Of a stretch of 64,000 nt of DNA, positions 7,152 through 54,329 are shown one piece after another; positions within the stretch are counted from its first letter, which is position 1, and every line of letters begins with the position of its first letter. A model generated the notes under the pieces. The model saw only the letters and a program-made list of their open reading frames with translations. It had not been told where the DNA came from and made no database searches. Origin of the DNA: Escherichia coli (lineage in GTDB: Bacteria > Pseudomonadota > Gammaproteobacteria > Enterobacterales > Enterobacteriaceae); the NCBI RefSeq assembly GCF_045037415.1, contig NZ_CP173438.1; one strand, written 5' to 3'. A program made the translations under genes and the position numbers.

Positions 7152-7160
7152 GGAACGACC

Positions 7161-8207
7161 ATGACGCAATTTAATCCCGTTGATCATCCACATCGCCGCT
7201 ACAACCCGCTCACCGGGCAATGGATTCTGGTTTCACCGCACCGCGCTAAGCGCCCCTGGCAGGGGGCGCAGGAAACGCCAGCCAAACAGGTGTTACCTGC
7301 GCACGATCCAGATTGCTTCCTCTGCGCAGGTAATGTGCGGGTGACAGGCGATAAAAACCCCGATTACACCGGGACTTACGTTTTCACTAATGACTTTGCG
7401 GCCTTGATGTCTGACACGCCAGATGCGCCAGAAAGCAACGATCCTTTGATGCGTTGCCAGAGCGCGCGCGGTACCAGCCGGGTGATCTGCTTTTCACCGG
7501 ATCACAGTAAAACGCTGCCAGAACTGAGCGTTGCGGCATTGACGGAAATCGTCAAAACCTGGCAGGAGCAAACCGCAGAACTGGGGAAAACATACCCGTG
7601 GGTGCAGGTCTTTGAAAACAAAGGCGCGGCGATGGGCTGCTCTAACCCGCATCCGCACGGACAGATTTGGGCAAATAGCTTCCTGCCTAACGAAGCTGAG
7701 CGCGAAGACCGTCTGCAAAAAGAATATTTCGCCGGGCAGAAATCACCAATGCTGGTGGATTATGTTCAGCGCGAGCTGGCAGACGGTAGCCGTACCGTTG
7801 TCGAAACCGAACACTGGTTAGCCGTCGTGCCTTACTGGGCTGCCTGGCCGTTCGAAACGCTACTGCTGCCCAAAGCCCACGTTTTACGGATCACCGATTT
7901 GACCGACGCCCAGCGCAGCGATTTGGCTCTGGCGTTGAAAAAGCTGACCAGTCGTTATGACAACCTCTTCCAGTGCTCCTTCCCCTACTCTATGGGCTGG
8001 CACGGCGCGCCATTTAATGGCGAAGAGAATCAACACTGGCAGCTGCACGCGCACTTTTATCCGCCTCTGTTGCGCTCTGCCACCGTACGTAAATTTATGG
8101 TTGGTTATGAAATGCTGGCAGAAACCCAGCGAGACCTGACCGCAGAACAGGCCGCAGAGCGTTTGCGCGCAGTCAGCGATATCCATTTTCGCGAATCCGG
8201 AGTGTAA
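7161..8207 (+). CDS. galT: galactose-1-phosphate uridylyltransferase
   Basis: 348 aa; HPHGQ active-site motif. Confidence 0.97.
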
Positions 8208-8210
8208 GAA

Positions 8211-9359: not shown

Positions 9360-10393
9360 ACGAAACTCCCGCACTGGCACCCGATGGTCAGCCGTACCGA
9401 CTGTTAACTTTGCGTAACAACGCAGGGATGGTAGTCACGCTGATGGACTGGGGTGCGACTTTACTTTCCGCCCGTATTCCGCTTTCCGATGGCAGCGTCC
9501 GCGAGGCGCTGCTTGGCTGCGCCAGCCCGGAATGCTATCAGGATCAGGCCGCATTTCTGGGGGCCTCTATTGGTCGTTATGCCAACCGCATCGCCAATAG
9601 CCGTTATACCTTTGACGGTGAAACCGTGACGCTTTCACCAAGTCAGGGCGTCAACCAATTGCATGGCGGCCCGGAAGGGTTCGACAAACGTCGCTGGCAG
9701 ATTGTGAACCAGAACGATCGTCAGGTGCTGTTTGCCCTGAGTTCAGATGATGGCGATCAGGGCTTCCCGGGTAATCTCGGCGCGACGGTGCAATATCGTC
9801 TGACCGACGATAACCGTATCTCCATTACTTATCGCGCCACAGTTGATAAACCTTGCCCGGTGAATATGACTAATCACGTCTATTTCAATCTTGACGGCGA
9901 GCAGTCTGACGTGCGCAATCATAAGTTGCAGATTCTGGCGGAAGAATATCTGCCGGTTGATGAAGGCGGCATTCCGCACGACGGCCTGAAATCTGTCGCC
10001 GGAACCTCTTTTGATTTCCGCAACGCCAAAATCATCGCCAGTGAGTTTCTTGCCGACGACGATCAGCGCAAAGTGAAAGGTTACGATCACGCGTTCTTGT
10101 TACAGGCCAAAGGCGATGGCAAGAAAGTGGCGGCGCATGTCTGGTCAGCAGATGAAAAATTGCAGCTGAAGGTCTACACCACCGCTCCGGCTCTGCAATT
10201 CTACTCCGGCAACTTCCTCGGCGGCACACCGTCGCGGGGAACCGAACCTTACGCTGACTGGCAAGGGCTGGCTCTGGAAAGCGAATTTCTGCCGGACAGC
10301 CCGAACCACCCTGAATGGCCGCAACCGGACTGCTTCCTGCGTCCTGGCGAAGAGTATTCCAGCCTGACGGAATATCAGTTTATTGCTCAGTAA
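9353..10393 (+). CDS. galM: aldose 1-epimerase (galactose mutarotase)
   Basis: 346 aa; last gene of galETKM, overlaps galK stop. Confidence 0.95.
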
Positions 10394-10546
10394 TGTTAAG
10401 CCCTCGTCATGAGGGCTTTATCCTCATATTGTTCAAATCACCAGCAAACACCGACATATTTGCAACTCAATATTCACAACAACCTTACACTGCGACACTA
10501 TTTTCGCTATGGTTATGCGTAAGCATTGCTGTTGCTTCGTCACGGC

Positions 10547-10570
10547 AATATAATGAGAATTATTATCATT
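10547..10570 (+). promoter_or_regulatory. candidate Fur box overlapping the gpmA -10 region
   Basis: AATATAATGAGAATTATTATCATT resembles the GATAATGATAATCATTATC consensus; gpmA is recalled as Fur-regulated. Confidence 0.35.
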
Positions 10571-10595
10571 AAAAGATGATTTGAGGAGTAAGTAT

Positions 10596-11348
10596 ATGGC
10601 TGTAACTAAGCTGGTTCTGGTTCGTCATGGCGAAAGTCAGTGGAACAAAGAAAACCGTTTCACCGGTTGGTACGACGTGGATCTGTCTGAGAAAGGCGTA
10701 AGCGAAGCAAAAGCAGCAGGTAAGCTGCTGAAAGAGGAAGGTTACAGCTTTGACTTTGCTTACACCTCTGTGCTGAAACGCGCTATTCATACCCTGTGGA
10801 ATGTGCTGGACGAACTGGATCAGGCATGGCTGCCCGTTGAGAAATCCTGGAAACTGAACGAACGTCACTACGGTGCATTGCAGGGTCTGAACAAAGCGGA
10901 AACCGCTGAAAAGTATGGCGACGAGCAGGTGAAACAGTGGCGTCGTGGTTTTGCGGTGACTCCGCCGGAACTGACTAAAGATGATGAGCGTTATCCGGGT
11001 CACGATCCGCGTTACGCGAAACTGAGCGAGAAAGAGCTGCCACTGACGGAAAGCCTGGCGCTGACCATTGACCGCGTGATCCCTTACTGGAATGAAACCA
11101 TTCTGCCGCGTATGAAGAGCGGTGAGCGCGTCATCATCGCCGCACACGGTAACTCGTTACGTGCGCTGGTGAAATATCTCGATAACATGAGCGAAGAAGA
11201 GATTCTTGAGCTGAATATCCCGACCGGCGTGCCGCTGGTTTATGAGTTTGACGAGAACTTCAAACCGCTGAAACGCTATTATCTGGGTAATGCTGACGAG
11301 ATCGCGGCGAAAGCAGCGGCGGTTGCTAACCAGGGTAAAGCGAAGTAA
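10596..11348 (+). CDS. gpmA: 2,3-bisphosphoglycerate-dependent phosphoglycerate mutase
   Basis: 250 aa; catalytic RHGESQWN motif; start at [12 protein letters not shown]. Confidence 0.97.
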
Positions 11349-19910: not shown

Positions 19911-20042
19911 CATATCTCCCTTATCTGGACCGATGGCCCACGATAATTTAGCAGAATGTTAACAAACTAAAATACACAAAACTACCAGAACCCCGTGGCA
20001 ACCGGTGCCTGATGTTGACCGTCGGAACAGTCAACATCGCGA

Positions 20043-21353
20043 TTACGGTTTGAAGTCCAATGGCGCGTTTTTGAACACTTCATATACTGCCTGGCTTGGT
20101 GGTTTCGGGATCTTCGCAAGTTTAGCTGCTGCCAACGCAGCTTGACAAAGTGCGGGATCGCCACCTTCAGGTTTGATATCCAGTAACATACCATCGGGTG
20201 CCAGTTTTATGCGCAGCGTACAGGTTTTGCCTGCATAGGACGATGCGTCATAGAACTTACTTTCGATAGCAGATTTAATCTGCCCGGCATAGTTATTGAT
20301 ATCGGCCCCTGATGCGCCATTGTTTTTAGTATTACCACTCCCGGCAGGCGAAGCATTGTTCCCTTTCGCCCCTCCCCCCGTTTTCGGTGCATTCTTACCA
20401 GAGCTTAGCTCACCGAAAATATCATCTGCCTCAGCGGCAGCTTTTGCTGCAGCGGCTTTTTCAGCTGCTGCTTTTGCCGCTGCCGCTTTTTTGTCTGCGG
20501 CGGCTTTTTCTGCCGCTGCTTTCTTATCAGCTGCTGCCTTTTCAGCAGCCGCTTTTTCTGCTGCTTTTTTGTCGGCTGCCGCTTTCTCTGCTGCCGCTTT
20601 CTTATCAGCTGCAGCCTTTTCAGCAGCCGCTTTTTCTGCTGCTTTTTTGTCGGCTGCCGCTTTCTCTGCTGCCGCTTTCTTCTCAGCTTCTGCCTTGGCT
20701 TTTTCAGCAGCTTCGGTTGCCGCTTTCTTTCTTGCTTCAGCTGCAGCTGCTTCTGCCGCTTCAGCTTTCTTCTTCAGCGCCGCAGCAGCAGCCTCGGCTT
20801 TTTTCTGCGCTTCGACTGCGGCTTTGGCGGCTTCTGCTTCTGCTTTTTTCTTCGCGTCTGCCGCCGCTTTCTTCGCTGCTTCTTCCGCAGCTTTAGCATC
20901 CGCTTCGGCCTTCGCTTTAGCATCTGCCGCCGCTTTCGCTGCCGCCTCTTCCGCTTGCTTCTGCTTTAACTCGGCCTGTTTTGCGGCTTCTTCAGCCTGC
21001 TTTTTCTGCTCCTGAGCCGCTAACCGCTCTTTCTCAAGTTGCTTCAGGCGTTCCTGTTCAGCCGCTTGTTTCTCACGCAGTTCTTCAGCAGCCTGCTGCT
21101 CTTTCATCTTGCGCTGCTCATCAGAACGCTTCGCGCTTGATTCCTGGCTTTGCATGCGTTTGTACTGCTCAACTACCGCACCTGAATCAACCATGACAGC
21201 GTCGATGGACGAACCACCGCCGCCTCCGGCTGAAGCTTCTATATTCTCATCGAACGAACTCCAGATCAGCGCCGCAAATAAGATGACATGCAGCACTGCT
21301 GAAATAATTATCGCCCGCTTGAGCTTGTCGTTTTGTTCGGTTGCCTTTGACAC
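20043..21353 (-). CDS. tolA: Tol-Pal system protein TolA
   Basis: 436 aa; N-terminal TM anchor, long Ala/Lys/Glu-rich domain II, C-terminal domain III. Confidence 0.95.
   Translation of the reverse strand: MSKATEQNDKLKRAIIISAVLHVILFAALIWSSFDENIEASAGGGGGSSIDAVMVDSGAVVEQYKRMQSQESSAKRSDEQRKMKEQQAAEELREKQAAEQERLKQLEKERLAAQEQKKQAEEAAKQAELKQKQAEEAAAKAAADAKAKAEADAKAAEEAAKKAAADAKKKAEAEAAKAAVEAQKKAEAAAAALKKKAEAAEAAAAEARKKAATEAAEKAKAEAEKKAAAEKAAADKKAAEKAAAEKAAADKKAAAEKAAADKKAAEKAAAEKAAADKKAAAEKAAADKKAAAAKAAAEKAAAAKAAAEADDIFGELSSGKNAPKTGGGAKGNNASPAGSGNTKNNGASGADINNYAGQIKSAIESKFYDASSYAGKTCTLRIKLAPDGMLLDIKPEGGDPALCQAALAAAKLAKIPKPPSQAVYEVFKNAPLDFKP
20521..20676. repeat. 78-bp tandem duplication (2 copies, 1 mismatch) inside tolA domain II
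   Basis: 20521-20598 and 20599-20676 are near-identical; in frame, each encodes a 26-aa Ala/Lys/Glu/Asp unit. Confidence 0.85.
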
Positions 21354-21417
21354 TCTCGGTTTCCAAAAACTGTTCGCCTGTTACCCGCTCTCTTTCAAGC
21401 AAGGGAAACGCAGATGT

Positions 21418-21846
21418 TTAGATAGGCTGCGTCATTAAACCAACCGATTTCACACCCGCACTATGTAACAAGTTCAGTGCTTTAATTATTTCATCGTAAG
21501 GCACATCTTTTGCGCCACCGATCAGAAAGACCGTTTTCGGGTTGGCCTTGAAACGGCTGGACACTTCCGCCACCACCTGCTCTGGTGGTAAACGCTCCAG
21601 GCGATCTTTCTCAACCACCACGGTGTACTGACCAATACCAGACACTTCAACAATCACTGGCGGATTATCGTTACTGCTCACCGCCTGTGATTCAGTAGCG
21701 TCTGGCAGATCGACCTCCACGCTCTGGGTGATGATGGGCGCTGTCGCCATAAAGATCAGCAACAGCACCAGCAGTACGTCCAGCAACGGTACAATGTTGA
21801 TTTCGGACTTGAGATCGCGACGACCTCGTCCACGCGCTCTGGCCAT
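21418..21846 (-). CDS. tolR: Tol-Pal system protein TolR
   Basis: 142 aa ExbD/TolR family. Confidence 0.97.
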   Translation of the reverse strand: MARARGRGRRDLKSEINIVPLLDVLLVLLLIFMATAPIITQSVEVDLPDATESQAVSSNDNPPVIVEVSGIGQYTVVVEKDRLERLPPEQVVAEVSSRFKANPKTVFLIGGAKDVPYDEIIKALNLLHSAGVKSVGLMTQPI

Positions 21847-21849
21847 GGC

Positions 21850-22943
<1,094 letters not shown>

Positions 22944-24668: not shown

Positions 24669-26237
24669 TTAGCGTGCCGGCTGAGTAGTCGTGGAAGACT
24701 GCTCAAAGTGATAGCGACCGGTTTTCAGGCTGCTTGGGCCGAGGCGTGCAAACTTGAACATTAAGAACAATTCTGCCACCAGGAACAGGGTATACAGGCC
24801 GCAAATCAGCACCATTGAGAAGATGAGATCGCCTGCGGTCAGTGACGAGTTCGCCACAGCTGTCGGCAGCACTTCACCGATAGCCCACGGTTGGCGGCCA
24901 TATTCAGCCACGAACCAGCCCGCTTCTACAGCAATCCACGGCAGCGGAATACCGTACAGCGCGGCGCGCAGCAGCCATTTTTTCTCGCCAATGCGGTTGC
25001 GGATGACACTCCAGAAAGAGAGCGCAATGATTGCCAGCAGCAGGAAGCCACACGCCACCATGATACGGAACGCGAAGTACAGCGGCGCTACACGCGGAAT
25101 GGAGTCTTTGGTTGCCTGTTGAATCTGAGCTTCAGTCGCATCAGCCACGTTTGGCGTATAGCGTTTCAGCAGCAGACCGTAACCGAGATCTTTCTTCATG
25201 CTATTGAACTGGTCACGAACGGCCTGGTCAGTAGAACCAGAACGCAGTTGTTCGAGCAGAGAGTACGCCTTCATCCCGTTACGAATGCGTTCTTCATGCT
25301 GCACCATCAGTTCTTTCAGACCGATAACTGGAGTATCCACGGAACGCGTTGCAATGATGCCCAGCGCGTAAGGGATCTGGATCGCAAATTTGTTCGTCTC
25401 CTCTTCCTGATCAGGAATGCCGAACAGAGTAAAGGCAGCAGGTGCAGGTTGCGTTTCCCACTCGGCTTCAATAGCAGCCAGTTTGGTTTTCTGCACGTCG
25501 CCCATTTCGTAGCCGGATTCATCACCCAGAACAATAACAGACAGAACGGCAGCCATACCGAAGCTGGCAGCGATAGCAAAGGAGCGTTTAGCGAAGGCGA
25601 AGTCACGACCTTTCAGCATATACCATGCGCTGATACCGAGGATGAACATCGCGCCAGTCACATAACCAGAAGCTACGGTGTGAACGAATTTCACCTGAGC
25701 AACCGGGTTAAGCACCAGCTCGGAGAAGCTCACCATCTCCATACGCATAGTTTCAAAGTTGAAATCGGACGCGATTGGGTTTTGCATCCAGCCGTTTGCA
25801 ACCAGAATCCACAGTGCGGACAGGTTTGAACCGAGCGCCACCAGCCAGGTGACACACATATGCTGAACTTTACCCAGACGATCCCAACCGAAGAAGAACA
25901 GACCTACAAAGGTGGATTCGAGGAAGAAGGCCATCAGACCTTCGATTGCCAGCGGCGCACCGAAGATATCCCCTACATAGTGGGAATAGTAAGACCAGTT
26001 AGTCCCGAACTGGAACTCCATGGTCAGACCGGTAGCCACACCCAGAGCAAAGTTGATACCAAACAACTTGCCCCAGAACTTGGTCATATCTTTATAAATC
26101 TGTTTGCCGGAAAGGACGTAGACCGTTTCCATAATGGCCAGCAGGAACGCCATACCGAGCGTCAGTGGCACAAAAAGGAAGTGGTACATCGCGGTCAAGG
26201 CAAACTGTAAGCGCGACAGTTCGACTATATCTAACAT
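24669..26237 (-). CDS. cydA: cytochrome bd-I oxidase subunit I
   Basis: 522 aa starting [19 protein letters not shown]. Confidence 0.97.
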
Positions 26238-26522
26238 CATGACTCCTTGCTCATCGCATGAAGACTCCGAGAGTGAACCCCGTTAGAAAGGGTCACACGC
26301 ATGCCCCAATACAAAATTATTTGCTCGCCTCTATCGTTGCCATTTCATCAAAAGAAGAAAAGACAATGATAAAAAAGTTACAAATATGTTAATGAATAAA
26401 CCAAATTTATCCCGTAATTATATTACGCTGCAAAATCCTTACAATAAACAGGTTTTTATTGAGCAAATTTGCATTTTTCGACAGTGATCAATTTATAGCG
26501 AAATTGTCACGATCCCACCAAT

Positions 26523-26536
26523 TTGATCTACAACAA
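26523..26536. promoter_or_regulatory. FNR-like half-palindrome in cydA upstream region
   Basis: TTGATCTACAACAA, partial match to TTGAT-N4-ATCAA, about 290 bp upstream of the cydA start. Confidence 0.4.
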
Positions 26537-26574
26537 TTTATCGTGTTTTGCAGATTTTTTTCAAGAATTAAAAA

Positions 26575-26588
26575 TTGATTTATATCAA
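26575..26588. promoter_or_regulatory. FNR binding site in cydA upstream region
   Basis: TTGATTTATATCAA, perfect TTGAT-N4-ATCAA, about 340 bp upstream of the cydA start. Confidence 0.6.
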
Positions 26589-27744
26589 AATCAATCAGAT
26601 ATGTTAACCGCTCGTAAATCATGAATCATTGATGGGTTTGTTGTTAATAAATTGTAGCAAAATAACACAGTAAAACTACCCACATGGAAATATATAGATA
26701 AAAAACCAGTATTTTATTTAACAGAACCGCCTTATCGACTTTTTATAATACTAGTTAGTTAGAGTAGCTACTTTGTTGCCATTTTACATAACATATTTTT
26801 ATCAACGTTAATTGATTGTTGTCTTTATGAGCAACGTACTGTAAATCCGTCACTTATTGTTTCATTGGTAATAATCACAAGAAGAAATAGATACCTTAGG
26901 TATAGTCAGATGGAACAAGGATTTTCAAAATAAATTTATATGGTATTAATATTTCCCGATCTGTATTCAATGATTCGCTCAAAGATTGAAAATCAAGAGA
27001 AATTGTTATAGCAGTGATACGAGACAACAAAACGGAATGATTGCCAGCCGTTAGAAAACACCGGACACTCTCGTGTAAAAAGCTACCCTGTCTATGGATA
27101 TAGCGATATCGACTCATCAAGCGTGGACTGAATGATATTCAGCTCCATATGGGCGGCAACCTGGAGGATAAACATGATTTCGCCGTTGGAATCAAGGTTG
27201 TTCTGCAATATCTACCAGACTGCTTCAATTTATCTGTTTTGGAAGTGCAATAATCTTAATTTAACTATTTGAAGATGATGATATTGTCAGATGCCAGAAA
27301 TTTAGTAATCTGGAGAACCGTGTCTATGATCACTAAATATTAAAGTAATAGTCGTCAGTAACACATCGAGTGATATAACGTATTGACACCTAATCATATA
27401 AAAACAGATCGTAATTAAGCAGCATAAGAATATGTCTTATTATCATTAAAATACATTCTATTTCCATCATCCTTAAGATAATAAAACAGTGAGTGATGGA
27501 TAATTTCACCCCAAAAAAAAGCAAGCATATAAAATTAAAAAACATGACTCCACTTTCATTTTTATGAAATGGCATCGTGAAGAGGCGCCAGCCAATTATA
27601 AAGATCTTGCTCCTCAAAAAATGAAACAACTCAGCCTGAGATAATATTTTTGACCGAAGTTAACATTAAAAATGGTTAATAGTTTGCGCCTCTCACACAG
27701 GTCCAGGCAACTGCGTAACAGGCAAATCAAATTTTCGTAAACAG

Positions 27745-27770
27745 TGGGCATCATCAGATGCCCACAAAAT
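27745..27770 (-). terminator. hairpin downstream of the TPR-protein gene
   Basis: perfect 9-bp stem GTGGGCATC-tgat-GATGCCCAC just 3' of the stop; weak T tract. Confidence 0.45.
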
Positions 27771-27779
27771 ACAGCTGAT

Positions 27780-28973
27780 TTACATTTTCGTCTTTACACG
27801 TGCAATAGCTTCTTCATAAGAAGGCTTATTTTTTTCCGTATACGCCAGTTGATAATGCTGCAATGCTTCAGCATTCTGGCCCGAGGTTTCATAAATTTTG
27901 GCAATGTTATAATAGGAGTTGGCGCGCGTTGTCGCCGCATTTACCCCACTCGCTAACGAGATCGCTTTACGATTTGCCCAAATTGCTTCCGCTATGTTGC
28001 CATTTTTCTGATACGCCAGACCCAGGTTACTAAATGCCTGTCCGTAATTGCCGTCTAATTCTGTTGCCTGTTGGAAGAGTTGAATGGCTTGCTCAAGTTG
28101 ACCGGTTTTATAAACAGCTTCACCTTCGCGATTATATTTTCTTGCCAGTTGAGTATCTCCACTGTTTTGCATCGCAGGCGAAGCCGGAGCTGAAGAGTCC
28201 GTCGCAGGCATTATCACAGTGGCTAAATCCCTGACGTCTAATGTGGTGCCGTTAAAATTGGCGCTGGTAACAGAGTTGATATCTTCAAACTCGCCGTTTG
28301 GATTGAGTTTAAACACGGTCCAGATGTTCCCTCGTTTTCCTGCAGGGACACTATAACTACGTACCAGGGAGCTCCCTACATAAACAAACACTTTTGCCTT
28401 ACTGGCAGAGAGATAATTACTGTTGGGCAGCCCTTTATTGCTATAGTCCTGCACGGCATAGATGTAACTTTCACCAAAATGCTTTTTGCTGATAGTGACA
28501 GTTTCTGGTCCATAGCTATCCGTATCATCAACATCCAGATTGGCATCAGTTCCCTCTTTACTATCAAAATAGATATGTCCGCCAGGGAAGATCAAATGCG
28601 AATCAAGATCAAAAGGCTTTTCGCCCCAGCTCAAAACTACACGCATGCCATCCAGATTCGTCATCACCGGACTGATAGCATAAGTCATGCCAGCGCACGG
28701 ACATTTGACCACCAGATTGGAATACCCCTCTTTTTTGACGATTAATAGAGCATCTTTATTATCAGCAAATGAAGTCCCCAAACTAATGCTGCCCGAAGTA
28801 TTTGTGATACCAGAAACAGATTGTGCACCATTGCGTTGCAGCGTCACCGATGCCCCTTCAATGCGTTTATCTTTCACTGTCGCACTTAAAATATCAATGC
28901 TTACATCGGCGGCATAAGCACCTGCATTCATGCCCAACAGCGCGAGAGCAACTGGCAAAACAATTTTCTTCAT
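27780..28973 (-). CDS. secreted protein with C-terminal TPR repeats (accessory; not in K-12 as I recall)
   Basis: 397-aa ORF; Sec signal peptide MKKIVLPVALALLGMNAGAYA; C-terminal TPR-like repeats; AGGA RBS; visibly lower GC than flanking core genes. Confidence 0.75.
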   Translation of the reverse strand: MKKIVLPVALALLGMNAGAYAADVSIDILSATVKDKRIEGASVTLQRNGAQSVSGITNTSGSISLGTSFADNKDALLIVKKEGYSNLVVKCPCAGMTYAISPVMTNLDGMRVVLSWGEKPFDLDSHLIFPGGHIYFDSKEGTDANLDVDDTDSYGPETVTISKKHFGESYIYAVQDYSNKGLPNSNYLSASKAKVFVYVGSSLVRSYSVPAGKRGNIWTVFKLNPNGEFEDINSVTSANFNGTTLDVRDLATVIMPATDSSAPASPAMQNSGDTQLARKYNREGEAVYKTGQLEQAIQLFQQATELDGNYGQAFSNLGLAYQKNGNIAEAIWANRKAISLASGVNAATTRANSYYNIAKIYETSGQNAEALQHYQLAYTEKNKPSYEEAIARVKTKM

Positions 28974-46523: not shown

Positions 46524-47834
46524 CTACACCAGCAGCAAAGATATTGCCGGAATATAGGTAATGACCAACAGAAGTAAAATAAGACTGATCAGTAATGGCA
46601 CCGCTTCACGCATAAATTGCCCGACAGAAACCTGTACGGTATTACATACCAGCAGCATCACCGTTCCGACAGGTGGTGATAACGTTCCTAACGATAAGTT
46701 GAGGATCATAATGATGCCAAAATGCACCGGATCAATGCCAAAATGAGCCACCACGGGTTTAAGTAATGGGACTAATATCAGCAGAATGGCACTACCTTCA
46801 AGGAACATGCCAAGCACCAGCAGCAATAGATTGATAATCAATAAAAAGACGTATTTATTATCGGTCAGAGAAGTTACAAACTCCGCAACCGTGATACCTG
46901 CCCGCTCAAGGGAAAATATCCAGCCCAGCGCGGCACTCGCCATAATGATTAACATGACCGATGCCGTGGAACGCGCCGTCTCAGAGAGTGCTGTAAATAC
47001 ATGGCTGATTTTCAGTTCGCGATAAATTACAAAACCAATAAACATTACCAATAATACTGCTACCGCTCCGGCTTCCGTTGGCGTAAAGATATTTGCCCGA
47101 ATACCACCGATAACCGCAACAATTAAGAACAGTGCTGGCCAGGCCTGCACCAGCGCCACTGACACTTCTTTCGGTTTTGGCCAGTGTTCGCTGGAAGGTT
47201 TTAAACCGCGACGAATAGCCACCAACCATACGGTAACGATCAACATGGCGGAGCACAGCAGACCTGGCAGGATCCCGGCCATAAACATGGAGCCGATGGA
47301 GACATCCGCCACCAGTCCGTAAAGGATCAGTGCAATACCCGGTGGAATAATTGGTGTAATCAGCGAACCACTTGCCGTTATCGCCGCCGCAAAGCCACGG
47401 GAATAACCTTTCTGTTCCATTTCCGGCACCATCATGCGCGATAACATTGCGGCATCCGCCAGATTTGAGGCACTGACACCGCCCATCATGGTACTGACCA
47501 GAATATTAGCCCCACCCAGGCCACCGCGCATTCTGCCAATCAACACGTTGGCAATTTGCAAAATACGCGCGGCAATACCGGTATAGCTCATTAACGTGCC
47601 TAATAAGATAAAAAACGGAATAGCTAACAGCGAAGGGGTTTGCGTCGTGGCAATCAAACGCTGAATTGCCACCATTAACGGCACATTTGAATAGCAAAGG
47701 AAGTAGGTCAGAATGCCGCAAAACATCGCCAGCCATACCGGCATATTGATAAATAAACAGACGAACATAAGCGGAATGATCATCAGCCAGTTATCCAGCC
47801 AGCTTCCCGCCAGTAATTCACTCAATGCTGTCAT
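46524..47834 (-). CDS. TRAP transporter large permease subunit (DctM family)
   Basis: 436-aa polytopic membrane protein; 1-nt overlap with upstream DctQ-like gene. Confidence 0.85.
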   Translation of the reverse strand: MTALSELLAGSWLDNWLMIIPLMFVCLFINMPVWLAMFCGILTYFLCYSNVPLMVAIQRLIATTQTPSLLAIPFFILLGTLMSYTGIAARILQIANVLIGRMRGGLGGANILVSTMMGGVSASNLADAAMLSRMMVPEMEQKGYSRGFAAAITASGSLITPIIPPGIALILYGLVADVSIGSMFMAGILPGLLCSAMLIVTVWLVAIRRGLKPSSEHWPKPKEVSVALVQAWPALFLIVAVIGGIRANIFTPTEAGAVAVLLVMFIGFVIYRELKISHVFTALSETARSTASVMLIIMASAALGWIFSLERAGITVAEFVTSLTDNKYVFLLIINLLLLVLGMFLEGSAILLILVPLLKPVVAHFGIDPVHFGIIMILNLSLGTLSPPVGTVMLLVCNTVQVSVGQFMREAVPLLISLILLLLVITYIPAISLLLV

Positions 47835-48295
47835 TATTCACCTTCTTTGCGTGGCGTTTTCTTGATCAGTTGTAAGGCAGTAAAACAGGCGACACCGATA
47901 GCGCCAACCGTGACGGCAATATCGATCCAAAACCAGGATATTTTTAATATTTGCGTGGTTTTAAAGGCTGTCCCGGCAGCTAATTTCCATGCTGACCAGG
48001 CCATGACCACCAGCAAAATAATAGACATCAGAGAGACTAAAAACGCTAATATACGTTGCCCGCGTGAAGTAAGTGCATCGGCTAAAAATGGAATCGATAA
48101 ATGGGTATTATCTCGTTCAGCAACAACCGCACCAAACATGACTACCCAAATCATTAATAAACCGGAAACCTCTTCTGTCCACTGTAATGGCATATGAAAA
48201 CAGTAACGCATTATTACCGCAGCAATGGTCATGATTACCAATATAAAGAGCGTTAATACCGCAGCAACTTCAATCATTTTCCCTAAAAGACGCAT
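47834..48295 (-). CDS. TRAP transporter small permease subunit (DctQ family)
   Basis: about 153 aa with 4 predicted TM helices; start set at MRLLGKM (GAGG RBS) rather than ORF-track start at 48331. Confidence 0.75.
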   Translation of the reverse strand: MRLLGKMIEVAAVLTLFILVIMTIAAVIMRYCFHMPLQWTEEVSGLLMIWVVMFGAVVAERDNTHLSIPFLADALTSRGQRILAFLVSLMSIILLVVMAWSAWKLAAGTAFKTTQILKISWFWIDIAVTVGAIGVACFTALQLIKKTPRKEGE

Positions 48296-48354
48296 AAACA
48301 CCTCTGCTCTTAACGGTCGGTGCCGAAACACCGACCAGTCCTTATGCCATGAAG

Positions 48355-49323
48355 TTATTTCAGCTGTTGCTGAATAGTGTCATACAAACCAGGGGTCCAT
48401 TCCGGGAATTGTTGATAGACTTTTAAGGCTTTTTCTTTGAAAGGGGCGACGTCAGGATAGATGATTTCCACGCCCTGCTCCTGCATGGTTTTCAACATTG
48501 TCGCATCCTGCTCAGTGGTAATTTTCTGGCTATATAAACCAGCTTCATACGCTGTCTGGTGAATAATATCTAACTGCGCAGGTGTCAGGGTACTGAAAAA
48601 CGCTTCGCCACCCAACCATAATGATGTATTGGTCAGATAGTTCACCATTGACAGATATTTCGCCTGCTCATGCAGCTTTTGCCCATAGAGAACAGAAACC
48701 GGGTTTTCCACACCATCGATCATCCCCTGAGTCAGCGCCGGATAAACATCTCCCAGCGGCATTGGTGTTGGGGTTGCGCCCATCGCTTCGATAGCTTTAA
48801 TCTGCATGACGTTATTCGGCACGCGGATCTTCATCCCTTTCAAGTCTTCAGGTGTACGAATCGGTTTTTTAGCAATGATCTGCCTGGTACCGTACAGATA
48901 GTTGCTCATGACAATATGCACACCTTTTTCCCGTAGTTTCTGTTCTTTTTGTTTAAACCAGTCACTGGCATAAATCGCAAACAGTTTCTGCGGATCTTCG
49001 GTTAAATAAGGCCCAAACAATATTCCCAAGTCTGCATCGTAGTCAGTTAAAAATCCTACATCACTGATGGTGATAATATTCATCCCCATCAACGCTTGTT
49101 CAGTAATATCTTGTTTAGAACCTAACTGTGAACTTGGGTAAAGTTCGAAAACAATATCTCCATTGCTTTTTTTCTTCACAAGTTCTGCCCAGTGCTTCAC
49201 TACTGTATCCGCTGGCTCGCCGGGGTTACTTTCATAGGCGATTTTGATAGTTACCGGTGCGGCATTCAGCATCGGACTAAATAAAGCTAAAAGAAATAAA
49301 AGTGGTGTCAGTAATTTTTTCAT
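48355..49323 (-). CDS. TRAP transporter periplasmic solute-binding protein (DctP family)
   Basis: 322 aa; signal peptide MKKLLTPLLFLLALFSPMLNA; DctP-like length and organisation. Confidence 0.85.
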   Translation of the reverse strand: MKKLLTPLLFLLALFSPMLNAAPVTIKIAYESNPGEPADTVVKHWAELVKKKSNGDIVFELYPSSQLGSKQDITEQALMGMNIITISDVGFLTDYDADLGILFGPYLTEDPQKLFAIYASDWFKQKEQKLREKGVHIVMSNYLYGTRQIIAKKPIRTPEDLKGMKIRVPNNVMQIKAIEAMGATPTPMPLGDVYPALTQGMIDGVENPVSVLYGQKLHEQAKYLSMVNYLTNTSLWLGGEAFFSTLTPAQLDIIHQTAYEAGLYSQKITTEQDATMLKTMQEQGVEIIYPDVAPFKEKALKVYQQFPEWTPGLYDTIQQQLK

Positions 49324-49350
49324 TATTATTACCTGTAAGAGCTTTATCGA

Positions 49351-50547
49351 TTAACGGGGATCTGCCCGACAGACTGCACTTTTGCTGTAATCAAATGCTT
49401 TATACGTTAAAACAAACTCCTGATGTTCCAGTCGTTCTGCGGCACAATATTGACCGTTGGCGACATGTTCAATCACCTGCATAATATCGTCTGCAATATC
49501 GTCGAGCGTTGCGCCTTCGCTAATTACACGACCGGCATTAACGTCCATATCGTCAGATAAATGCTCCCACGTCTGCGGGTTATTACACACTTTAATAATA
49601 GGAGCGATCACTGAACCAATAACTGAACCGCGACCTGTGGTAAATAACACCATATGACAGCCAGAGGCGATAAGTTCCAGTGCTTCTGAGGAATCGTTAA
49701 TATTCGGATACCCAAAACGAGGTTCACCATCAGGCACCACGTCCATCAACCAAAGCCCAGGAAAGGGCGTTTGTTGCGTCGGCAAAATAACGCCAGCAAT
49801 CAGCGCATCGCCCGACTTGGTATAAGCCCCAAGGGATTTTTCTTCCTGAGTGGTTAAGCCGCCTTCAGCATTACCGTTAGAAAAACTCCCCAGCCCCATC
49901 AAACTGTAATAACGTTCGGCTTTTGTCATTGCCACTTCGATGGCATCACGTGCCTGCGAACTAGCCGCGCGCGACATCATATGCTGCTCACAACCAAGCA
50001 ACTCACCGCTTTCTTCAAAAATACAGGTAGCCCCTTTCTCCAGCAGTTGGTCAAAGGCACGTCCTACTGCCGGGTTACCCGTGATACCACTGGTGCCATC
50101 GGAGCCACCGCAGATAGTACCAACCACCAGGTCGCTCCAGTTCAGGATACAACGCGGTGTATCCGCAAGCTGTTCCAGCATTTCAGCGACCAACTGCTTA
50201 CCCAGAGTAATGGTGTTGGTCGTGCCTTTATTTTCCTGAATGACCAGCGTATGGCACGGTCGCCCACTTTCTCGTACTTCTTGCTCCAGCCGACGGCGAT
50301 CGAAATTCTCGCACCCCAGCGAAATAATCAGTACACCACCTACGTTGCTATGAGTCGCCAGATTTTTCACCAGCCGATAGCCATAATCGCTGGGATAACA
50401 ACCTGAAAAACCAAAATACTGCACGTCGTGACAAGGAAATCCTTCGGCAATCTTTTTAGCGACATGGCTGGCACACTCCACCATAAAGATTACCTGCACA
50501 GTATTACGAATACCTGGTCGACCATTTTGCCGTACATAACCTTCCAT
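49351..50547 (-). CDS. UxaA/GarD-family sugar-acid dehydratase, large catalytic subunit
   Basis: 398 aa resembling the C-terminal catalytic domain of altronate/galactarate dehydratases; start overlaps stop of upstream SAF gene. Confidence 0.75.
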   Translation of the reverse strand: MEGYVRQNGRPGIRNTVQVIFMVECASHVAKKIAEGFPCHDVQYFGFSGCYPSDYGYRLVKNLATHSNVGGVLIISLGCENFDRRRLEQEVRESGRPCHTLVIQENKGTTNTITLGKQLVAEMLEQLADTPRCILNWSDLVVGTICGGSDGTSGITGNPAVGRAFDQLLEKGATCIFEESGELLGCEQHMMSRAASSQARDAIEVAMTKAERYYSLMGLGSFSNGNAEGGLTTQEEKSLGAYTKSGDALIAGVILPTQQTPFPGLWLMDVVPDGEPRFGYPNINDSSEALELIASGCHMVLFTTGRGSVIGSVIAPIIKVCNNPQTWEHLSDDMDVNAGRVISEGATLDDIADDIMQVIEHVANGQYCAAERLEHQEFVLTYKAFDYSKSAVCRADPR

Positions 50548-50858
50548 TATGCTTTTTCCTCTGACTGATAGCCGGCATCATCATGATGAAAAATGGCGAT
50601 GGCATTGCTGGCAAGATTATGGGAATGCACATGTTCACCCATGGCAATATCGCGAGTGGCGTGTCCGATAATGGCGCCGTATTTCAGAATCGAATCACCA
50701 TTGTTCAGCGCTTCGCAGGCCAGTTTGTGCCCCAGGGTAACGGAACTACAGGCCACCATTTCCCCCTCATCCCACCAGACAATATCGCCACTGGCGATGT
50801 CATTCAGCGCGACTACACAGTTATCTTTGGCATGTAGCTTTAACGCACGTTTGCGCAT
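50547..50858 (-). CDS. UxaA-family dehydratase small subunit (SAF domain)
   Basis: about 103 aa from MRKRALKLHAKDNCVVAL with perfect GGAGG RBS; ORF-track start at 50963 judged an over-extension. Confidence 0.7.
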   Translation of the reverse strand: MRKRALKLHAKDNCVVALNDIASGDIVWWDEGEMVACSSVTLGHKLACEALNNGDSILKYGAIIGHATRDIAMGEHVHSHNLASNAIAIFHHDDAGYQSEEKA

Positions 50859-50872
50859 AATTCCTCCGTACA

Positions 50873-51628
50873 TCAGAAGCCGATCAATGCGCCGCCATCC
50901 ACCACCAGCACCTGACCACTGACAAACGCCGCTGCGTCTGAAGCCAGATAAACCGCAGCCCAACCGATATCCTCCGGCTTGCCGAATTTTTTCATCGGGG
51001 TACGACCCAGGATTTTGTTACGGCGTTCGTCATCACCTTCAATGGCCTTACGCAACATTGGTGTATCGATCCAGCCTGGCGCAATACCATTGACGCGAAT
51101 CCCATGAACGGCAAGCTCCGTGGTCATACCGCGAATCATGCCGAGATAGGCTGACTTCGCTGCGCTGTAGCCAGTAACCAGAGGCTGCCCAAGAAATGAG
51201 GTCATCGATGCAGTAAAAAGCACACAGCCTTTACCGCGTTGTTTCATATGCGGCACCAGCGCTTTGGTTAACGCAAATGCGCCGACTACGTGAACGTCGA
51301 GTACTGACTCAAAATCACTGACGCTCATCTCTTCAATCGGTTTTTTGCAGTGATTGCCTGCGTTATTGACCAGGATATCGATAGCCCCGTGTTCGCTAAT
51401 AAGCACATCAACTTTTTCCTGCGCGGCTGCGGTATCCCCGACATCCATTTGTATCCAACTGGCCTGCGACCCCAATGTTCCGGCGGTCGCTTGCGCCAGC
51501 TCGCCGTTCAGGTCAGCAATAATGACCTTCGCCCCGCTGACTATCATGCATTTCGCCATTGCCAGCCCCAGCCCACTGGCTGCACCGGTGATCAACGCGG
51601 TTTTGTTATGTAAAGAAAAAGCATTCAT
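50873..51628 (-). CDS. short-chain dehydrogenase/reductase, KduD/IdnO-like
   Basis: 251 aa; TGAASGLG cofactor motif and YSAAK catalytic motif. Confidence 0.85.
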   Translation of the reverse strand: MNAFSLHNKTALITGAASGLGLAMAKCMIVSGAKVIIADLNGELAQATAGTLGSQASWIQMDVGDTAAAQEKVDVLISEHGAIDILVNNAGNHCKKPIEEMSVSDFESVLDVHVVGAFALTKALVPHMKQRGKGCVLFTASMTSFLGQPLVTGYSAAKSAYLGMIRGMTTELAVHGIRVNGIAPGWIDTPMLRKAIEGDDERRNKILGRTPMKKFGKPEDIGWAAVYLASDAAAFVSGQVLVVDGGALIGF

Positions 51629-51639
51629 GGTGTCGCTCC

Positions 51640-52653
51640 TTAAAGGTCAATGAGGATTTTGGTATACGCGCCGGGATCACTTGCCCAGTCGCTAAAAGCG
51701 TGATCAGCCTGTTCCAGCGGGTAGTGAGCACTCACCAGATTGCTGACCGGATAACGCCCGGACTCCATCAATGCCAGCACGGCACGAAAATCCGCCACGG
51801 TGGCATTGCGCGAACCACGGATATCCAGTTCTTTCATCAGGAACTGCGCACTCTGATAACTCACTGGCTGTTTGGCGTAACCGACATAAACCACACGACC
51901 GCTAAACGCCACCAACCCTGTAGCCTGTTCAATGGTTTGTTGATTACCCACCGCTTCAATCACCACTTCCGGGCCGCGACCGTCATTTAACAGCACCAGT
52001 TCTGCCGCCACGTCACATTGCTGCGAATTAAGAAAACGTTGCGCACCGCATTCCAGGGCAATGTTCCGCTTGCGATCATCAATATCGATAGCAATTACGC
52101 GCGCCCCCATGGCGGATGCCGCGGCGATAGCGCCAAGGCCAATTACCCCACAACCGATAACTGCGACCCATTCACCCACATTAATTTGCGCACGTCTGGC
52201 CGCATGTAGTCCCACGGCCAGCGGTTCTACCAGCGCTAACTCATCAACACTTAAGGCATTACAGACAATGACTTTATGTGCAGGCATCGTCAGTTGTTGC
52301 GCCATCCCCCCCTGACGTTGCACACCAAGAGTTTGGTTGTTTTTACAGGCGTTAGGACGACCGCTCAGACAGGAGCTGCACACGCCACACTCAGTGCAAG
52401 GCAGAACGACCACCCGGTCACCTGGCTTGATCGCCCCTGCCATATCGCCAGTTGCCAGCACCGTGCCGCCAATTTCATGCCCCGGAATACAGGGATAATT
52501 AACCAGCGGATTTAGTCCCCGCCAGGTATTGAGGTCAGAACCACACAGTCCGACACGCTCAACATTGATTAGCACTTCTCCTTTACCGCAGACAGGTTCG
52601 GGGATATCAACAAATCGCGCCTGACTTCCCTGCTCAATGGTTAATGCCTTCAT
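51640..52653 (-). CDS. Zn-dependent medium-chain polyol/sugar-acid dehydrogenase
   Basis: 337 aa; GHE catalytic-Zn motif, structural-Zn Cys cluster, GxGxxG Rossmann motif. Confidence 0.85.
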   Translation of the reverse strand: MKALTIEQGSQARFVDIPEPVCGKGEVLINVERVGLCGSDLNTWRGLNPLVNYPCIPGHEIGGTVLATGDMAGAIKPGDRVVVLPCTECGVCSSCLSGRPNACKNNQTLGVQRQGGMAQQLTMPAHKVIVCNALSVDELALVEPLAVGLHAARRAQINVGEWVAVIGCGVIGLGAIAAASAMGARVIAIDIDDRKRNIALECGAQRFLNSQQCDVAAELVLLNDGRGPEVVIEAVGNQQTIEQATGLVAFSGRVVYVGYAKQPVSYQSAQFLMKELDIRGSRNATVADFRAVLALMESGRYPVSNLVSAHYPLEQADHAFSDWASDPGAYTKILIDL

Positions 52654-52665
52654 TCATTGCTCTCC

Positions 52666-53352
52666 TTACATTACGCCGAAGGTTTCAAAGGCCTGTACCG
52701 TGCTCATGCCATCACTGATGGCTTTGCGCACTTCACTTTCAGTTGCCACTTTTTCCAGGGCCTGGGTAATAACTTCTTTCTCAACAACCTGGGGAATAAT
52801 CAGTAATCCGTCACGATCACCAAACACGATATCGCCCGGATTCACTCGCACGCCGTGAAATTCAATAGGTACGCCGAAGTCGATGACCTTGCCGCGCGGA
52901 CCTTGATCCTGTGCGTAAGTGCCATGACAAAAAGTGGGAAATTTCAATTCAAGAATTTCAGCAGAGTCACGGGCGTAACCATCGAGTACCGCACCTGCTG
53001 CTTTCAGATGCATGGCACGGGTAGACATCAACCCGCCCCACAAGGCATAGCGCAGAGAGCTGCCCGTAGTGATGTAAACATCGTTCTCTTTGAGGGCATC
53101 CAGCGCTTCAAACATGATGCCAAACGGTTTTTCGCCAATCGCCGTCTTACCCGACGTCGATTTGGTTTCGTAAACGTCCGACTCCAGCACCGGCATTGCC
53201 CGGCCTGCCACCACCGTATTCACATCCAGCGGCTTGATTGCCGGAGAAACAAACTGGTGCATATAGCCCAGCGTGTCGAGAATATCGCCAACCACGGCGG
53301 TAAATAGCCGGGTTTTCATCAAAGCAAAAAGTTCGTTATCACTCTTCCACAT
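52666..53352 (-). CDS. RraA-family protein, putative class II 4-hydroxy-2-oxoacid aldolase
   Basis: about 228 aa from MWKSDNEL (ATG with AGGA RBS); RraA-like fold inferred by recall; first gene of the operon. Confidence 0.6.
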   Translation of the reverse strand: MWKSDNELFALMKTRLFTAVVGDILDTLGYMHQFVSPAIKPLDVNTVVAGRAMPVLESDVYETKSTSGKTAIGEKPFGIMFEALDALKENDVYITTGSSLRYALWGGLMSTRAMHLKAAGAVLDGYARDSAEILELKFPTFCHGTYAQDQGPRGKVIDFGVPIEFHGVRVNPGDIVFGDRDGLLIIPQVVEKEVITQALEKVATESEVRKAISDGMSTVQAFETFGVM

Positions 53353-53361
53353 TATTTTCGT

Positions 53362-53390
53362 CCTGTAAGCCTGTTTAACAGGTTTACAGG
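53362..53390. promoter_or_regulatory. nested inverted-repeat candidate operator
   Basis: CCTGTAAGCCTGTTTAACAGGTTTACAGG: two CCTGT arms then two ACAGG arms; inner tGTttaACa fits GntR-type GT-Nx-AC; 10-38 bp upstream of the first operon gene. Confidence 0.5.
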
Positions 53391-53615
53391 GTAAGGAGAA
53401 AAAGCGCACAATACTGCGAAGGGCGTCACGAAAAAGTTGTGTATTTACTATTTCTTCGCCACTCTTTCACACAATATGTCTTTGATTCGCACTGCATGGC
53501 GGGCGCACAGGCGCAGTAGTCTATTGATAATCAAGGGTTCTGGAGGAAAATATGAAGGATACAGTCCCGGTATTCTGGATTTCACCGACCAGGAAAAAGT
53601 ACAACAGGAGTAAAA

Positions 53616-54329
53616 ATGAGTGAGAGTGCGTTATTGACCAGCGTAACGTTATCGTCACAGGTCAAAAATCATATTCTTAATCTGATCGCCGAACAAAAAT
53701 TGACACCGGGGATGCCAGTTCCCAGTGAAGTTCAGCTGATTCAGAAATTGGGTGTCAGTCGGGGTATTGTGCGTGAGGCCTATCGTTCACTTGCCGCCCT
53801 GGGGATTCTGGAAACGCACAGCGGTAAAGTGCCACGAATCAAAAAATTTGATGATGAAGTGCTGCGCGTGGTGTTTGGATTTGCCCTGGCGACCGAACAA
53901 GTGACAACAGAGCAAATTCTTCAAGTACGCCGCTGGCTGGAGTTGGGCGTTGTGGAAGCTGCTGCCCGTAATGGCGAAGAGGAAGATTTTGCTAACCTAC
54001 GGGCTGAAATGGCAAAAATCCGCGAACAGTTCAATGATGTTGAAAGCTTTATCACCCATGATATCCGCTTCCATCAGTTACTTGCCGTTGCCTCAAAAAA
54101 TCCGCTTTTTATGATGTTATTGCAGGCATTACATCAGCAGTTGCGGCAATCCATCCAGGAGGGTTTAAACGCCCAAAGCGATCAGAAAGAGTATGGCAAT
54201 CACATCATCACACTACACCAGAAAATCTGCGATGCTGTGTGTGCCAGGGATGTCGAAACGGCGACTCAAGCCATGAAATCACACTTCGACAGCCCGGTCA
54301 GTGCACTGATCAATAATTCCTCGTCATAA
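53616..54329 (+). CDS. GntR-family (FadR/FCD subfamily) transcriptional regulator
   Basis: 237 aa; N-terminal HTH (KLGVSRGIVREAYRSL), C-terminal all-helical FCD-like domain; divergent from the catabolic operon. Confidence 0.85.
   Translation: MSESALLTSVTLSSQVKNHILNLIAEQKLTPGMPVPSEVQLIQKLGVSRGIVREAYRSLAALGILETHSGKVPRIKKFDDEVLRVVFGFALATEQVTTEQILQVRRWLELGVVEAAARNGEEEDFANLRAEMAKIREQFNDVESFITHDIRFHQLLAVASKNPLFMMLLQALHQQLRQSIQEGLNAQSDQKEYGNHIITLHQKICDAVCARDVETATQAMKSHFDSPVSALINNSSS

Follow-up and report, generated by a model that had tools for sequence, protein, structure and literature searches.

An RraA-like protein at the head of an accessory sugar-acid operon in Escherichia coli is a candidate metal-dependent, pyruvate-forming lyase

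The 64-kb stretch of DNA analyzed here (hereafter, the window) is Escherichia coli chromosome, 100% identical to several complete genomes. At 52666–53352, on the minus strand, it encodes an RraA-like protein that heads an operon of eight co-directional genes with gaps of 0–59 nt, from which a regulator gene diverges. A first-pass annotation made from the sequence alone had proposed this protein as the likely terminal aldolase of a kinase-free sugar-acid pathway. Pyruvate-releasing cleavage of a C3–C4 bond is most likely the reading that fits every context in which we found the gene. More specifically, the RraA-like protein may be a divalent-metal-dependent, pyruvate-forming class II aldolase that performs direct retro-aldol cleavage as the last dedicated step of the operon, a proposal to which we give slightly less than an even chance.

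The open reading frame (ORF) starts with an ATG at 53352, preceded by an AGGA Shine-Dalgarno sequence about 8 nt upstream, and ends at 52666; RefSeq places an "RraA family protein" (WP_000265973.1) at identical coordinates. Residues 18–184 match model positions 1–151/152 of the Pfam family RraA-like (PF03737) with an E value of 1.3e-31. The ORF, the Pfam match, and the RefSeq coordinates agree with the earlier reading of an RraA-like first gene, and this is a real gene. Orthologues of WP_000265973.1 with 56–99% protein identity occur in Escherichia, Serratia, Rhodobacterales, Rhizobiales, Bacteroidota, and others, and the names already attached to homologues include "RraA family protein", "HMG aldolase", "RNase E regulator", and "demethylmenaquinone methyltransferase". 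None of the relevant NCBIfam equivalog cut-offs is reached: the protein scores 42.7 bits against NF006875 (RraA, the RNase E regulator; cut-off 136), 53.9 against TIGR02798 (cut-off 304.5), and 61 against NF006731 (cut-off 179), the latter two describing HMG/CHA aldolase (HMG, 4-hydroxy-4-methyl-2-oxoglutarate; CHA, 4-carboxy-4-hydroxy-2-oxoadipate). At 228 aa it exceeds the ~160 aa expected of the RraA equivalog, and its identity to E. coli RraA is 24%. Immediately upstream of the start codon, at 53362–53390, is a near-perfect inverted repeat (14-nt arms with 93% complementarity and a 1-nt spacer) that overlaps the Shine-Dalgarno sequence and could act as the operator of the divergent FadR/GntR regulator or fold into an mRNA hairpin. 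A scan of the operon for promoters and terminators returned sites no more frequent than in shuffled sequence.

An AlphaFold2 (AF2) model of the protein was built from 45 homologues and compared with the Protein Data Bank (PDB) by Foldseek. The model has a predicted local distance difference test (pLDDT) score of 92.8 and matches long-form members of the RraA fold, namely 5IR2, 3K4I, 2C5Q (yeast Yer010c), 3NOJ, and 5X15 (RraAS2), at a Foldseek probability of 1.00 and template modeling (TM) scores of 0.72–0.82. Without RraAS2 the range is 0.75–0.82; the TM score is 0.79 against the HMG/CHA aldolase 3NOJ and only ~0.55 against the 160-residue RraAs. Structure prediction upheld the fold assignment made from the letters alone, and the metal-binding and catalytic residues that the first-pass annotation had wanted checked are present. 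The key residues are G106, G107, R128, D129, E133, and E205. When the protein is aligned to the 3NOJ fragment, R128, D129, and E205 pair with Arg-123, Asp-124, and Glu-199 of HMG/CHA aldolase, of which Arg-123 is the essential enolate-stabilizing residue and the other two are acidic metal ligands (PMC5065237). Most homologues hold one or the other of two motifs on which metal binding and catalysis depend (PMC5065237). The position of aldolase Asp-102 is taken by Gly107 in the RraA-like protein, where an acidic residue is found instead at E133, giving G107-X20-R128-D129-S-A-E133, the G-X20-R-D-X2-E variant. Mazurkewich et al. (2014) reportedly worded the two motifs as D-X20-R-D and G-X20-R-D-X2-E/D, and are said to have described aldolase and decarboxylase activities of the Thermus thermophilus and yeast RraA-like proteins.

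Covariation was examined in the 120 closest homologue clusters, at identities of at least 63%. R128 and D129 are present in all 120 clusters and E205 in 119. Position 107 is Gly where position 133 is Glu (106 of 120), and Glu where position 133 is Gly (14 of 120); no cluster has both acidic residues and none has neither. We regard this perfect covariation as strong evidence, at the level of sequence, for selection on the metal site. The protein is best regarded as an enzyme rather than a regulator, because its conserved metal site covaries and because its operon with catabolic enzymes is conserved across phyla. That it instead regulates RNase E or the degradosome in the manner of E. coli RraA, with no catalytic role, is hardly credible. 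It does share the Pfam family and core fold with RraA, and Streptomyces RraAS2, another long-form member, is titled an RNase ES inhibitor in PDB entry 5X15; against this stand the low RraA equivalog score and identity given above, the Gln that E. coli RraA carries at the position of metal ligand D129, and the same covarying site and cross-phylum operon. Moreover, rraA is itself a core gene of E. coli (seen in K-12).

The operon and its regulator comprise the following genes, listed from the divergent regulator into the operon.

53616–54329, plus strand: FadR/GntR-family regulator, 237 aa, divergent (NCBIfam, RefSeq)
52666–53352, minus strand: RraA/HMG-CHA-aldolase-fold protein, 228 aa, operon gene 1 (PF03737, RefSeq WP_000265973.1, AF2 model, residue alignment)
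51640–52653, minus strand: Zn-dependent medium-chain (alcohol) dehydrogenase (Zn-ADH), 337 aa, LgoD-like (NCBIfam matches all below cut-off)
50873–51628, minus strand: classical short-chain dehydrogenase/reductase (SDR), 251 aa (NCBIfam, nearest relatives)
50547–50858, minus strand: small (SAF-domain) subunit of a split UxaA/GarD-family dehydratase, 103 aa (RefSeq "UxaA family hydrolase"; N-terminus of the galactarate dehydratase model)
49351–50547, minus strand: large subunit of a UxaA/GarD-family sugar-acid dehydratase, 398 aa (identities, match to PDB 6u7l)
48355–49323, minus strand: tripartite ATP-independent periplasmic (TRAP) solute-binding protein DctP, 322 aa (matches to PDB 4OVT and 4O8M)
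47834–48295, minus strand: TRAP small permease DctQ (NCBIfam, RefSeq)
46524–47834, minus strand: TRAP large permease DctM (TIGR00786, 390 bits, above cut-off)

For two of these genes the longest ORF starts upstream of the RefSeq start: at TTG 50963, inside the SDR gene, rather than 50858 for the UxaA small subunit, and at GTG 48331 rather than 48295 for DctQ. The shorter RefSeq starts look correct.

The Zn-ADH is 35% identical to the L-galactonate 5-dehydrogenase LgoD of E. coli K-12 and 48–50% identical to Zn-ADHs found beside orthologous TRAP systems in Brucella and Phyllobacteriaceae. For the SDR, the nearest characterized relatives are KduD, DhuD, and gluconate 5-dehydrogenase, with FabG also among the best matches; an Asp at the end of β2 (VIIADL) suggests that it uses NAD(H). 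Assignment of the SDR as a 2-keto-3-deoxy-L-fuconate (L-KDF) 4-dehydrogenase, a tagaturonate reductase, or a KduD-type enzyme was considered and dropped, its nearest matches being generic (FabG, gluconate 5-dehydrogenase, DhuD).

The large dehydratase subunit is 28% identical to the E. coli altronate dehydratase UxaA, 43–67% identical to a clade whose members all accompany RraA-like genes, and 35% identical to the canonical UxaB-linked clade. The island dehydratase belongs to a clade distinct from the canonical altronate dehydratases. It matches GarD in PDB 6u7l with an E value of 2.7e-31, and the dehydratase's sole NCBIfam match is galactarate dehydratase, far under the cut-off. In P. mimosarum and C. 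jejuni, the role of L-fuconate dehydratase has been assigned to heteromeric UxaA-type enzymes. DctP is 68% identical to PDB 4OVT and matches 4O8M at 8e-81, and a TRAP system with dual L-fuconate/L-galactonate specificity is on record (PMC5507952). As the first-pass annotation had noted, the cluster contains no kinase by NCBIfam, and a KdgK probe gave no match in the 64-kb window.

To place the operon in a wider context, we compared about 35 loci by tblastn probes and Pfam-annotated contigs, with context orthologues of 56–82% identity. A UxaA-, UxuA-, or MR_MLE-type dehydratase is present in 12 of about 18 distinct contexts. The UxaA-type contexts, from Escherichia, Entomohabitans, Serratia, Uliginosibacterium, a Succinivibrionaceae metagenome-assembled genome (MAG), a Bacteroidales MAG, Phaeobacter, Aliiruegeria, and Phyllobacteriaceae, combine an island-type dehydratase with an SDR, with or without a Zn-ADH and a TRAP or major facilitator superfamily (MFS) transporter. 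The Aliiruegeria locus also holds an aldo-keto reductase and an L-fucono-lactonase-like gene, and in Serratia, Entomohabitans, and the Succinivibrionaceae MAG an orthologous regulator diverges from the RraA-like gene. An orthologous SDR (43–81% identity) adjoins the RraA-like gene in most related loci. In Snuella, the RraA-like gene precedes an SDR and an enolase-superfamily dehydratase. Separately, Snuella sedimenti (locus L002, 3350–8872) carries another, more divergent RraA-like gene (218 aa, 31% identity), which stands directly before a split UxaA pair, the large subunit of which is 55% identical to that in the window, together with an MFS transporter and a GH29 α-L-fucosidase; this second cluster (3350–8872) has no SDR and no Zn-ADH.

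Three further arrangements bear on how the RraA-like gene and its neighbors work together. In Nitratireductor (locus L015, 5533–10684), the cluster consists of a GntR regulator, a tripartite tricarboxylate transporter (TctC/B/A), an SDR, and the RraA-like gene, with no dehydratase, which implies that an imported carboxylate is handled by the SDR and the RraA-like enzyme only. In Uliginosibacterium (locus L033, 9001–17540), the RraA-like gene, Zn-ADH, SDR, and a fused island-type dehydratase form a cluster placed back-to-back with a canonical UxaA-UxaB-KdgK set; identity between the two dehydratases is only 31%, suggesting that they act on different substrates. Comparison of Brucella with Phyllobacteriaceae (L039, 5303–12794, and L040, 7456–15092) reveals a module swap, in which TRAP and Zn-ADH genes that are orthologous (76% identity between the Zn-ADHs) are accompanied by UxaB and canonical UxaA in the former and by an SDR, the RraA-like gene, and a split island-type dehydratase in the latter.

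The recurring SDR also fits a different chemistry, in which the RraA-like enzyme would hydrolyze a 2,4-diketo-3-deoxy acid and so stand in, without homology, for the FAH-family enzymes FucG/LRA6. The dehydratase would form L-KDF or 2-keto-3-deoxy-L-galactonate (L-KDGal), the adjacent NAD+-dependent SDR would oxidize C4, and the hydrated 2,4-diketo acid would be split into pyruvate and L-lactate (or glycerate) via a metal-bound pyruvate enolate, while the Zn-ADH would belong to a separate L-galactonate branch. We judge this rather unlikely. In its favor, a core of dehydratase, SDR, and RraA-like gene recurs, with UxaA-type dehydratases in the Bacteroidales and Succinivibrionaceae MAGs and an enolase-type one in Snuella, and the SDR and RraA-like gene stand alone in Nitratireductor. 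This core mirrors route 3, made up of the dehydratase FucC, the SDR FucF, and the FAH hydrolase FucG (PMC11199699), as well as Halomonas loci (PMC5507952), and no FAH gene was found in these clusters or in any of the Pfam-annotated loci. The Uliginosibacterium cluster lies beside UxaA-UxaB-KdgK, so its SDR and island dehydratase are probably not mere duplicates of UxaB and UxaA. The assignment of heteromeric UxaA-type enzymes to L-fuconate points the same way, the SDR would appear to be NAD-specific, and no aldehyde-handling enzyme would be necessary. Against hydrolysis, a 4-dehydrogenase is missing from the uxuA-rraA(-kdgK) clusters, whose one SDR is unrelated (29% identity), aldose-dehydrogenase-like, and paired with an SGL lactonase. 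The island SDR best matches KduD, gluconate 5-dehydrogenase, and FabG, and an L-KDF 4-dehydrogenase is not among the top matches listed. We also know of no hydrolase activity reported for the RraA fold, which counts against this alternative.

The clusters built around UxuA raise another question, that of phosphorylation. In Rhizobium, Ensifer, and Ancalomicrobiaceae, the RraA-like gene directly follows a UxuA mannonate dehydratase gene. In a Tabrizicola MAG (locus L011, 8435–11584), uxuA and the RraA-like gene (9995–10681) are followed by a KdgK-like kinase gene that starts at 10682, abutting the RraA-like stop; this kinase matches the KdgK model with 275 bits, and there is no eda within 10 kb. 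A Rhodobacteraceae MAG (L012) has the same order of uxuA, RraA-like, and KdgK-like genes. As a separate observation, a conserved 341-aa ORF with no Pfam or NCBIfam match lies directly after the Rhizobium RraA-like gene (L028, 8693–9718) and also occurs in L011, near −10 kb. The first-pass description of the pathway as kinase-free thus holds for the island cluster and fails as a generality, given the uxuA-rraA-kdgK order in Tabrizicola and the kdgK-like genes in L012 and near L033.

Such loci could be explained if the RraA-like enzyme were a class II aldolase for 2-keto-3-deoxy-6-phosphogluconate (KDPG) or an analogue, acting after KdgK in the role of Eda but with a metal-dependent mechanism. 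In that case the E. coli island would depend on a chromosomal kinase and hence not be kinase-free. This, too, is improbable in our estimation. It is favored by the gene order and the lack of a nearby eda in Tabrizicola L011 and Rhodobacteraceae L012, by the KdgK gene 7 kb from the RraA-like gene in Uliginosibacterium, and by the expectation that UxuA-type clusters should yield 2-keto-3-deoxygluconate (KDG). However, most clusters, the E. coli island included, lack a kinase; a 6-deoxy substrate such as L-fuconate is not phosphorylatable at C6; and E. coli, which already has Eda, would gain no obvious benefit. Archaeal KDG aldolases encoded beside kdgK take both forms of the substrate, and kinase adjacency is compatible with activity on the free acid.

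One Bacteroidota orthologue lies within a GH88/KduI uronate polysaccharide utilization locus (PUL), which brings to mind FlDet of Flavobacterium sp. UMI-01, a 2-keto-3-deoxyglucarate (KDGR) dehydratase/decarboxylase activated by divalent metals (PMC8563752). On this alternative, two dehydrogenases would make a 2-keto-3-deoxy-aldarate that the RraA-like enzyme converts to α-ketoglutarate semialdehyde (α-KGSA), or the enzyme would carry out a Weimberg-type dehydration of the keto-deoxy acid. FlDet is the sole RraA-fold enzyme characterized on sugar acids and acts after the SDR FlRed (PMC8563752); besides the uronate PUL, the sub-threshold galactarate dehydratase match of the dehydratase is in keeping with such a route. 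Nevertheless, we consider an FlDet-like activity decidedly improbable. Identity to FlDet is only 29%, and FlDet has the D-X20-R-D variant of the motif. No α-KGSA dehydrogenase was found in the E. coli cluster or in related clusters, the lone Aldedh gene lying 5 kb off in an unrelated aminotransferase cluster, and the TRAP solute-binding protein resembles aldonate binders rather than aldarate binders. Orthology with FlDet, which marine Flavobacteriia among the 65%-identity matches had led us to suspect, was rejected once the FlDet sequence itself proved to be only 29% identical. By these comparisons the RraA-like protein appears to belong to the catalytic subgroup of the family, outside the HMG/CHA aldolase and RraA equivalogs, and not to be an FlDet orthologue.

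The argument for pyruvate-releasing C3–C4 cleavage rests on what the contexts share. Dehydratases of three unrelated superfamilies (UxaA, UxuA, and enolase) adjoin the RraA-like gene, another copy sits in a uronate PUL, and no other aldolase is present in the clusters. Within 10 kb of the RraA-like gene no Eda homologue was found in any locus, and the single DHDPS-family (dihydrodipicolinate synthase) gene lies ~4 kb from an orphan Variovorax copy, on the opposite strand and beside amino-acid transport genes. Because the clusters hold no competing aldolase, the RraA-like gene fills the aldolase slot, including in uxuA-rraA-kdgK. The C. jejuni fucose operon, in which a DapA-type gene comes first and is followed by a split uxaA' pair, has its DapA-type gene in the same slot. 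What unites them is a 2-keto-3-deoxy-hexonate of the KDG stereo-series, and the conserved residues suit a site that would bind a 2-keto acid through a metal and stabilize a pyruvate enolate. The configuration at C2–C4 is the same in D-altronate, L-galactonate, L-fuconate, and D-arabinonate (PMC6336799). Their dehydration products, KDG, L-KDGal, L-KDF, and 2-keto-3-deoxy-D-pentonate (D-KDP), would accordingly share their C4 stereochemistry, and therefore one C4-specific lyase could serve all contexts.

From this context we infer the substrate, the order of steps, and the retro-aldol chemistry of the E. coli operon as follows. The TRAP system would import an aldonate of the L-galactonate/L-fuconate type, and the Zn-ADH, the SDR, and the UxaA-type dehydratase would convert it to a 2-keto-3-deoxy-hexonate with 4S configuration (KDG, or its L-threo or 6-deoxy analogue). 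The C1 carboxylate and C2 keto group would be chelated on Mg2+ held by D129, E205, and E133. R128 would stabilize the pyruvate enolate as the C3–C4 bond is cut, and the products would be pyruvate and a C3 aldehyde (glyceraldehyde or lactaldehyde). Direct retro-aldol cleavage requires no partner enzyme.

Several points weigh against this proposal. To our knowledge, cleavage of a 2-keto-3-deoxy acid derived from a sugar is not an established activity of any RraA-fold enzyme. The cluster contains no aldehyde dehydrogenase, and the assignment of the DctP ligand is tentative, the matching structures 4OVT and 4O8M being reportedly Enzyme Function Initiative (EFI) entries with L-fuconate and L-galactonate bound. 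An SDR stands beside the RraA-like gene in the majority of contexts, in Nitratireductor without a dehydratase, which suggests that the two enzymes act consecutively. The true substrate could also be phosphorylated, as KdgK-like kinases are adjacent in Tabrizicola and the Rhodobacteraceae MAG. An additional KDG aldolase seems redundant beside KdgK/Eda if the substrate is anything other than a 6-deoxy or L-threo analogue. Finally, FlDet gave no detectable conversion of KDG, KDPG, 4-deoxy-L-erythro-5-hexoseulose uronate (DEHU), or 4-hydroxy-2-oxoglutarate (PMC8563752). The first-pass designation as a terminal aldolase is thereby sustained in part: the residues, the linkage to dehydratases, and the lack of another aldolase speak for it, whereas the adjacent SDR equally fits 2,4-diketo hydrolysis and FlDet is inactive on KDG and KDPG.

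The genomic setting bears on the choice of substrate. The island, comprising the operon and its regulator (46524–54329), sits between gltA and abrB, where K-12 instead holds the ybgOPQD fimbrial operon (gltA–abrB slot; L038, 3922–8796). Of 5,426 complete E. coli genomes, 660 (~12%), human fecal isolates among them, carry the full 8.1-kb island, and on that account we regard it as an accessory metabolic island. K-12 carries eda, and E. coli also has kdgK outside the island. The island would therefore make most sense for a substrate that LgoD, UxaB, UxaA, KdgK, and Eda cannot finish, for which a 6-deoxy aldonate such as L-fuconate is a candidate. Outside the island, the window carries the usual core genes (mod, gal, tol-pal, cyd, mng, suc, sdh). 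Two compositional outliers there are likewise ordinary: a low-GC stretch (0.365) at ~26237–27780, which is a long unannotated region upstream of cydA, and a strong negative AT skew at 20000–22000, which is the repetitive tolA gene.

We found no publication on this RraA-like subfamily or on the island, and a full-text literature search returned nothing that connects the RraA family with fucose, KDG, or the aldol cleavage of sugar acids. Genomic region (GR) 21 of strain BEN2908 was considered as a published description of the island and discarded, as it lies between ygiQ and ftsP and has other genes (UxuB-like, YjjN-like, AllD-like, TRAP). It is conceivable, although we hold it with less than even confidence and a shade more doubt than the aldolase assignment itself, that the subfamily represents widespread, unrecognized metal-dependent C–C lyases for sugar acids in Proteobacteria and Bacteroidota. 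These enzymes would end the non-phosphorylative catabolism of KDG-type keto-deoxy acids and of those derived from L-fuconate and L-galactonate, displacing DHDPS-type aldolases and FAH hydrolases and letting island-bearing E. coli use 6-deoxy or L-series aldonates beyond the reach of KdgK/Eda. If so, oxidative sugar-acid pathways would have a third, mechanistically distinct finish beside class I DHDPS/Eda-type aldolases and FAH hydrolases, many genes labeled "RraA family protein" or mislabeled would receive a function, and the accessory island found in place of ybgOPQD in ~12% of complete E. coli genomes would have its substrate defined. The aldolase of the Dahms pathway is still called unidentified in a recent paper (PMC12994016), and the RraA-like family offers a concrete candidate type for gaps of this kind. 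NCBIfam also describes RraA-like domains fused to an FAH-family hydrolase (NF009399, a 501-aa model) and to hexulose-6-phosphate synthase (NF005442, a 430-aa model), which hints at other metabolic roles for the fold.

Among known systems, E. coli RraA (1Q5X, 2YJV) shares the Pfam family and core fold with the RraA-like protein but is 161 aa long rather than 228, is without the C-terminal helix that bears E205, and is encoded by a stand-alone core gene. The FAH-family enzymes FucG/LRA6 could occupy the same slot, after an SDR 4-dehydrogenase, and differ in having an unrelated fold; enzymes of that family unite acylpyruvase and oxaloacetate decarboxylase chemistry. Class I aldolases of the DHDPS/N-acetylneuraminate lyase (NAL) type (FucH/Cj0481, YagE/YjhH, archaeal KDGA, fungal GAAC) resemble the RraA-like protein in the proposed reaction and pathway position. 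Their fold is unrelated, and they use a Schiff-base lysine in place of a metal, so that the parallel is one of functional analogy only.

Closer comparisons lie within the RraA fold. T. thermophilus RraA (1J3L) and yeast Yer010c (2C5Q) reportedly share the G-X20-R-D-X2-E/D motif, whereas the RraA-like protein is extended by helices at both termini and belongs to a defined catabolic operon. FlDet (PMC8563752) has in common the RraA fold, a 2-keto-3-deoxy sugar acid as substrate, and a preceding SDR step; it differs in sequence (29% identity over 212 residues), in its D-X20-R-D motif, in its dicarboxylate substrate, and in its α-KGSA dehydrogenase partner. HMG/CHA aldolase (LigK/GalC/ProA; 3NOJ) has the same long-form α-β-β-α fold (TM 0.79) with the essential Arg and the Asp/Glu ligands, and by analogy the chemistry here would be expected to proceed via a Mg-bound pyruvate enolate. 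Identity is ~20–23%, Gly stands in for Asp-102, the acidic residue having shifted to E133, and the presumed substrate would be a secondary alcohol at C4 and lack a carboxylate there. HMG/CHA aldolase serves aromatic catabolism, in the meta-cleavage of protocatechuate and gallate, whereas the RraA-like protein is encoded in a sugar-acid cluster.

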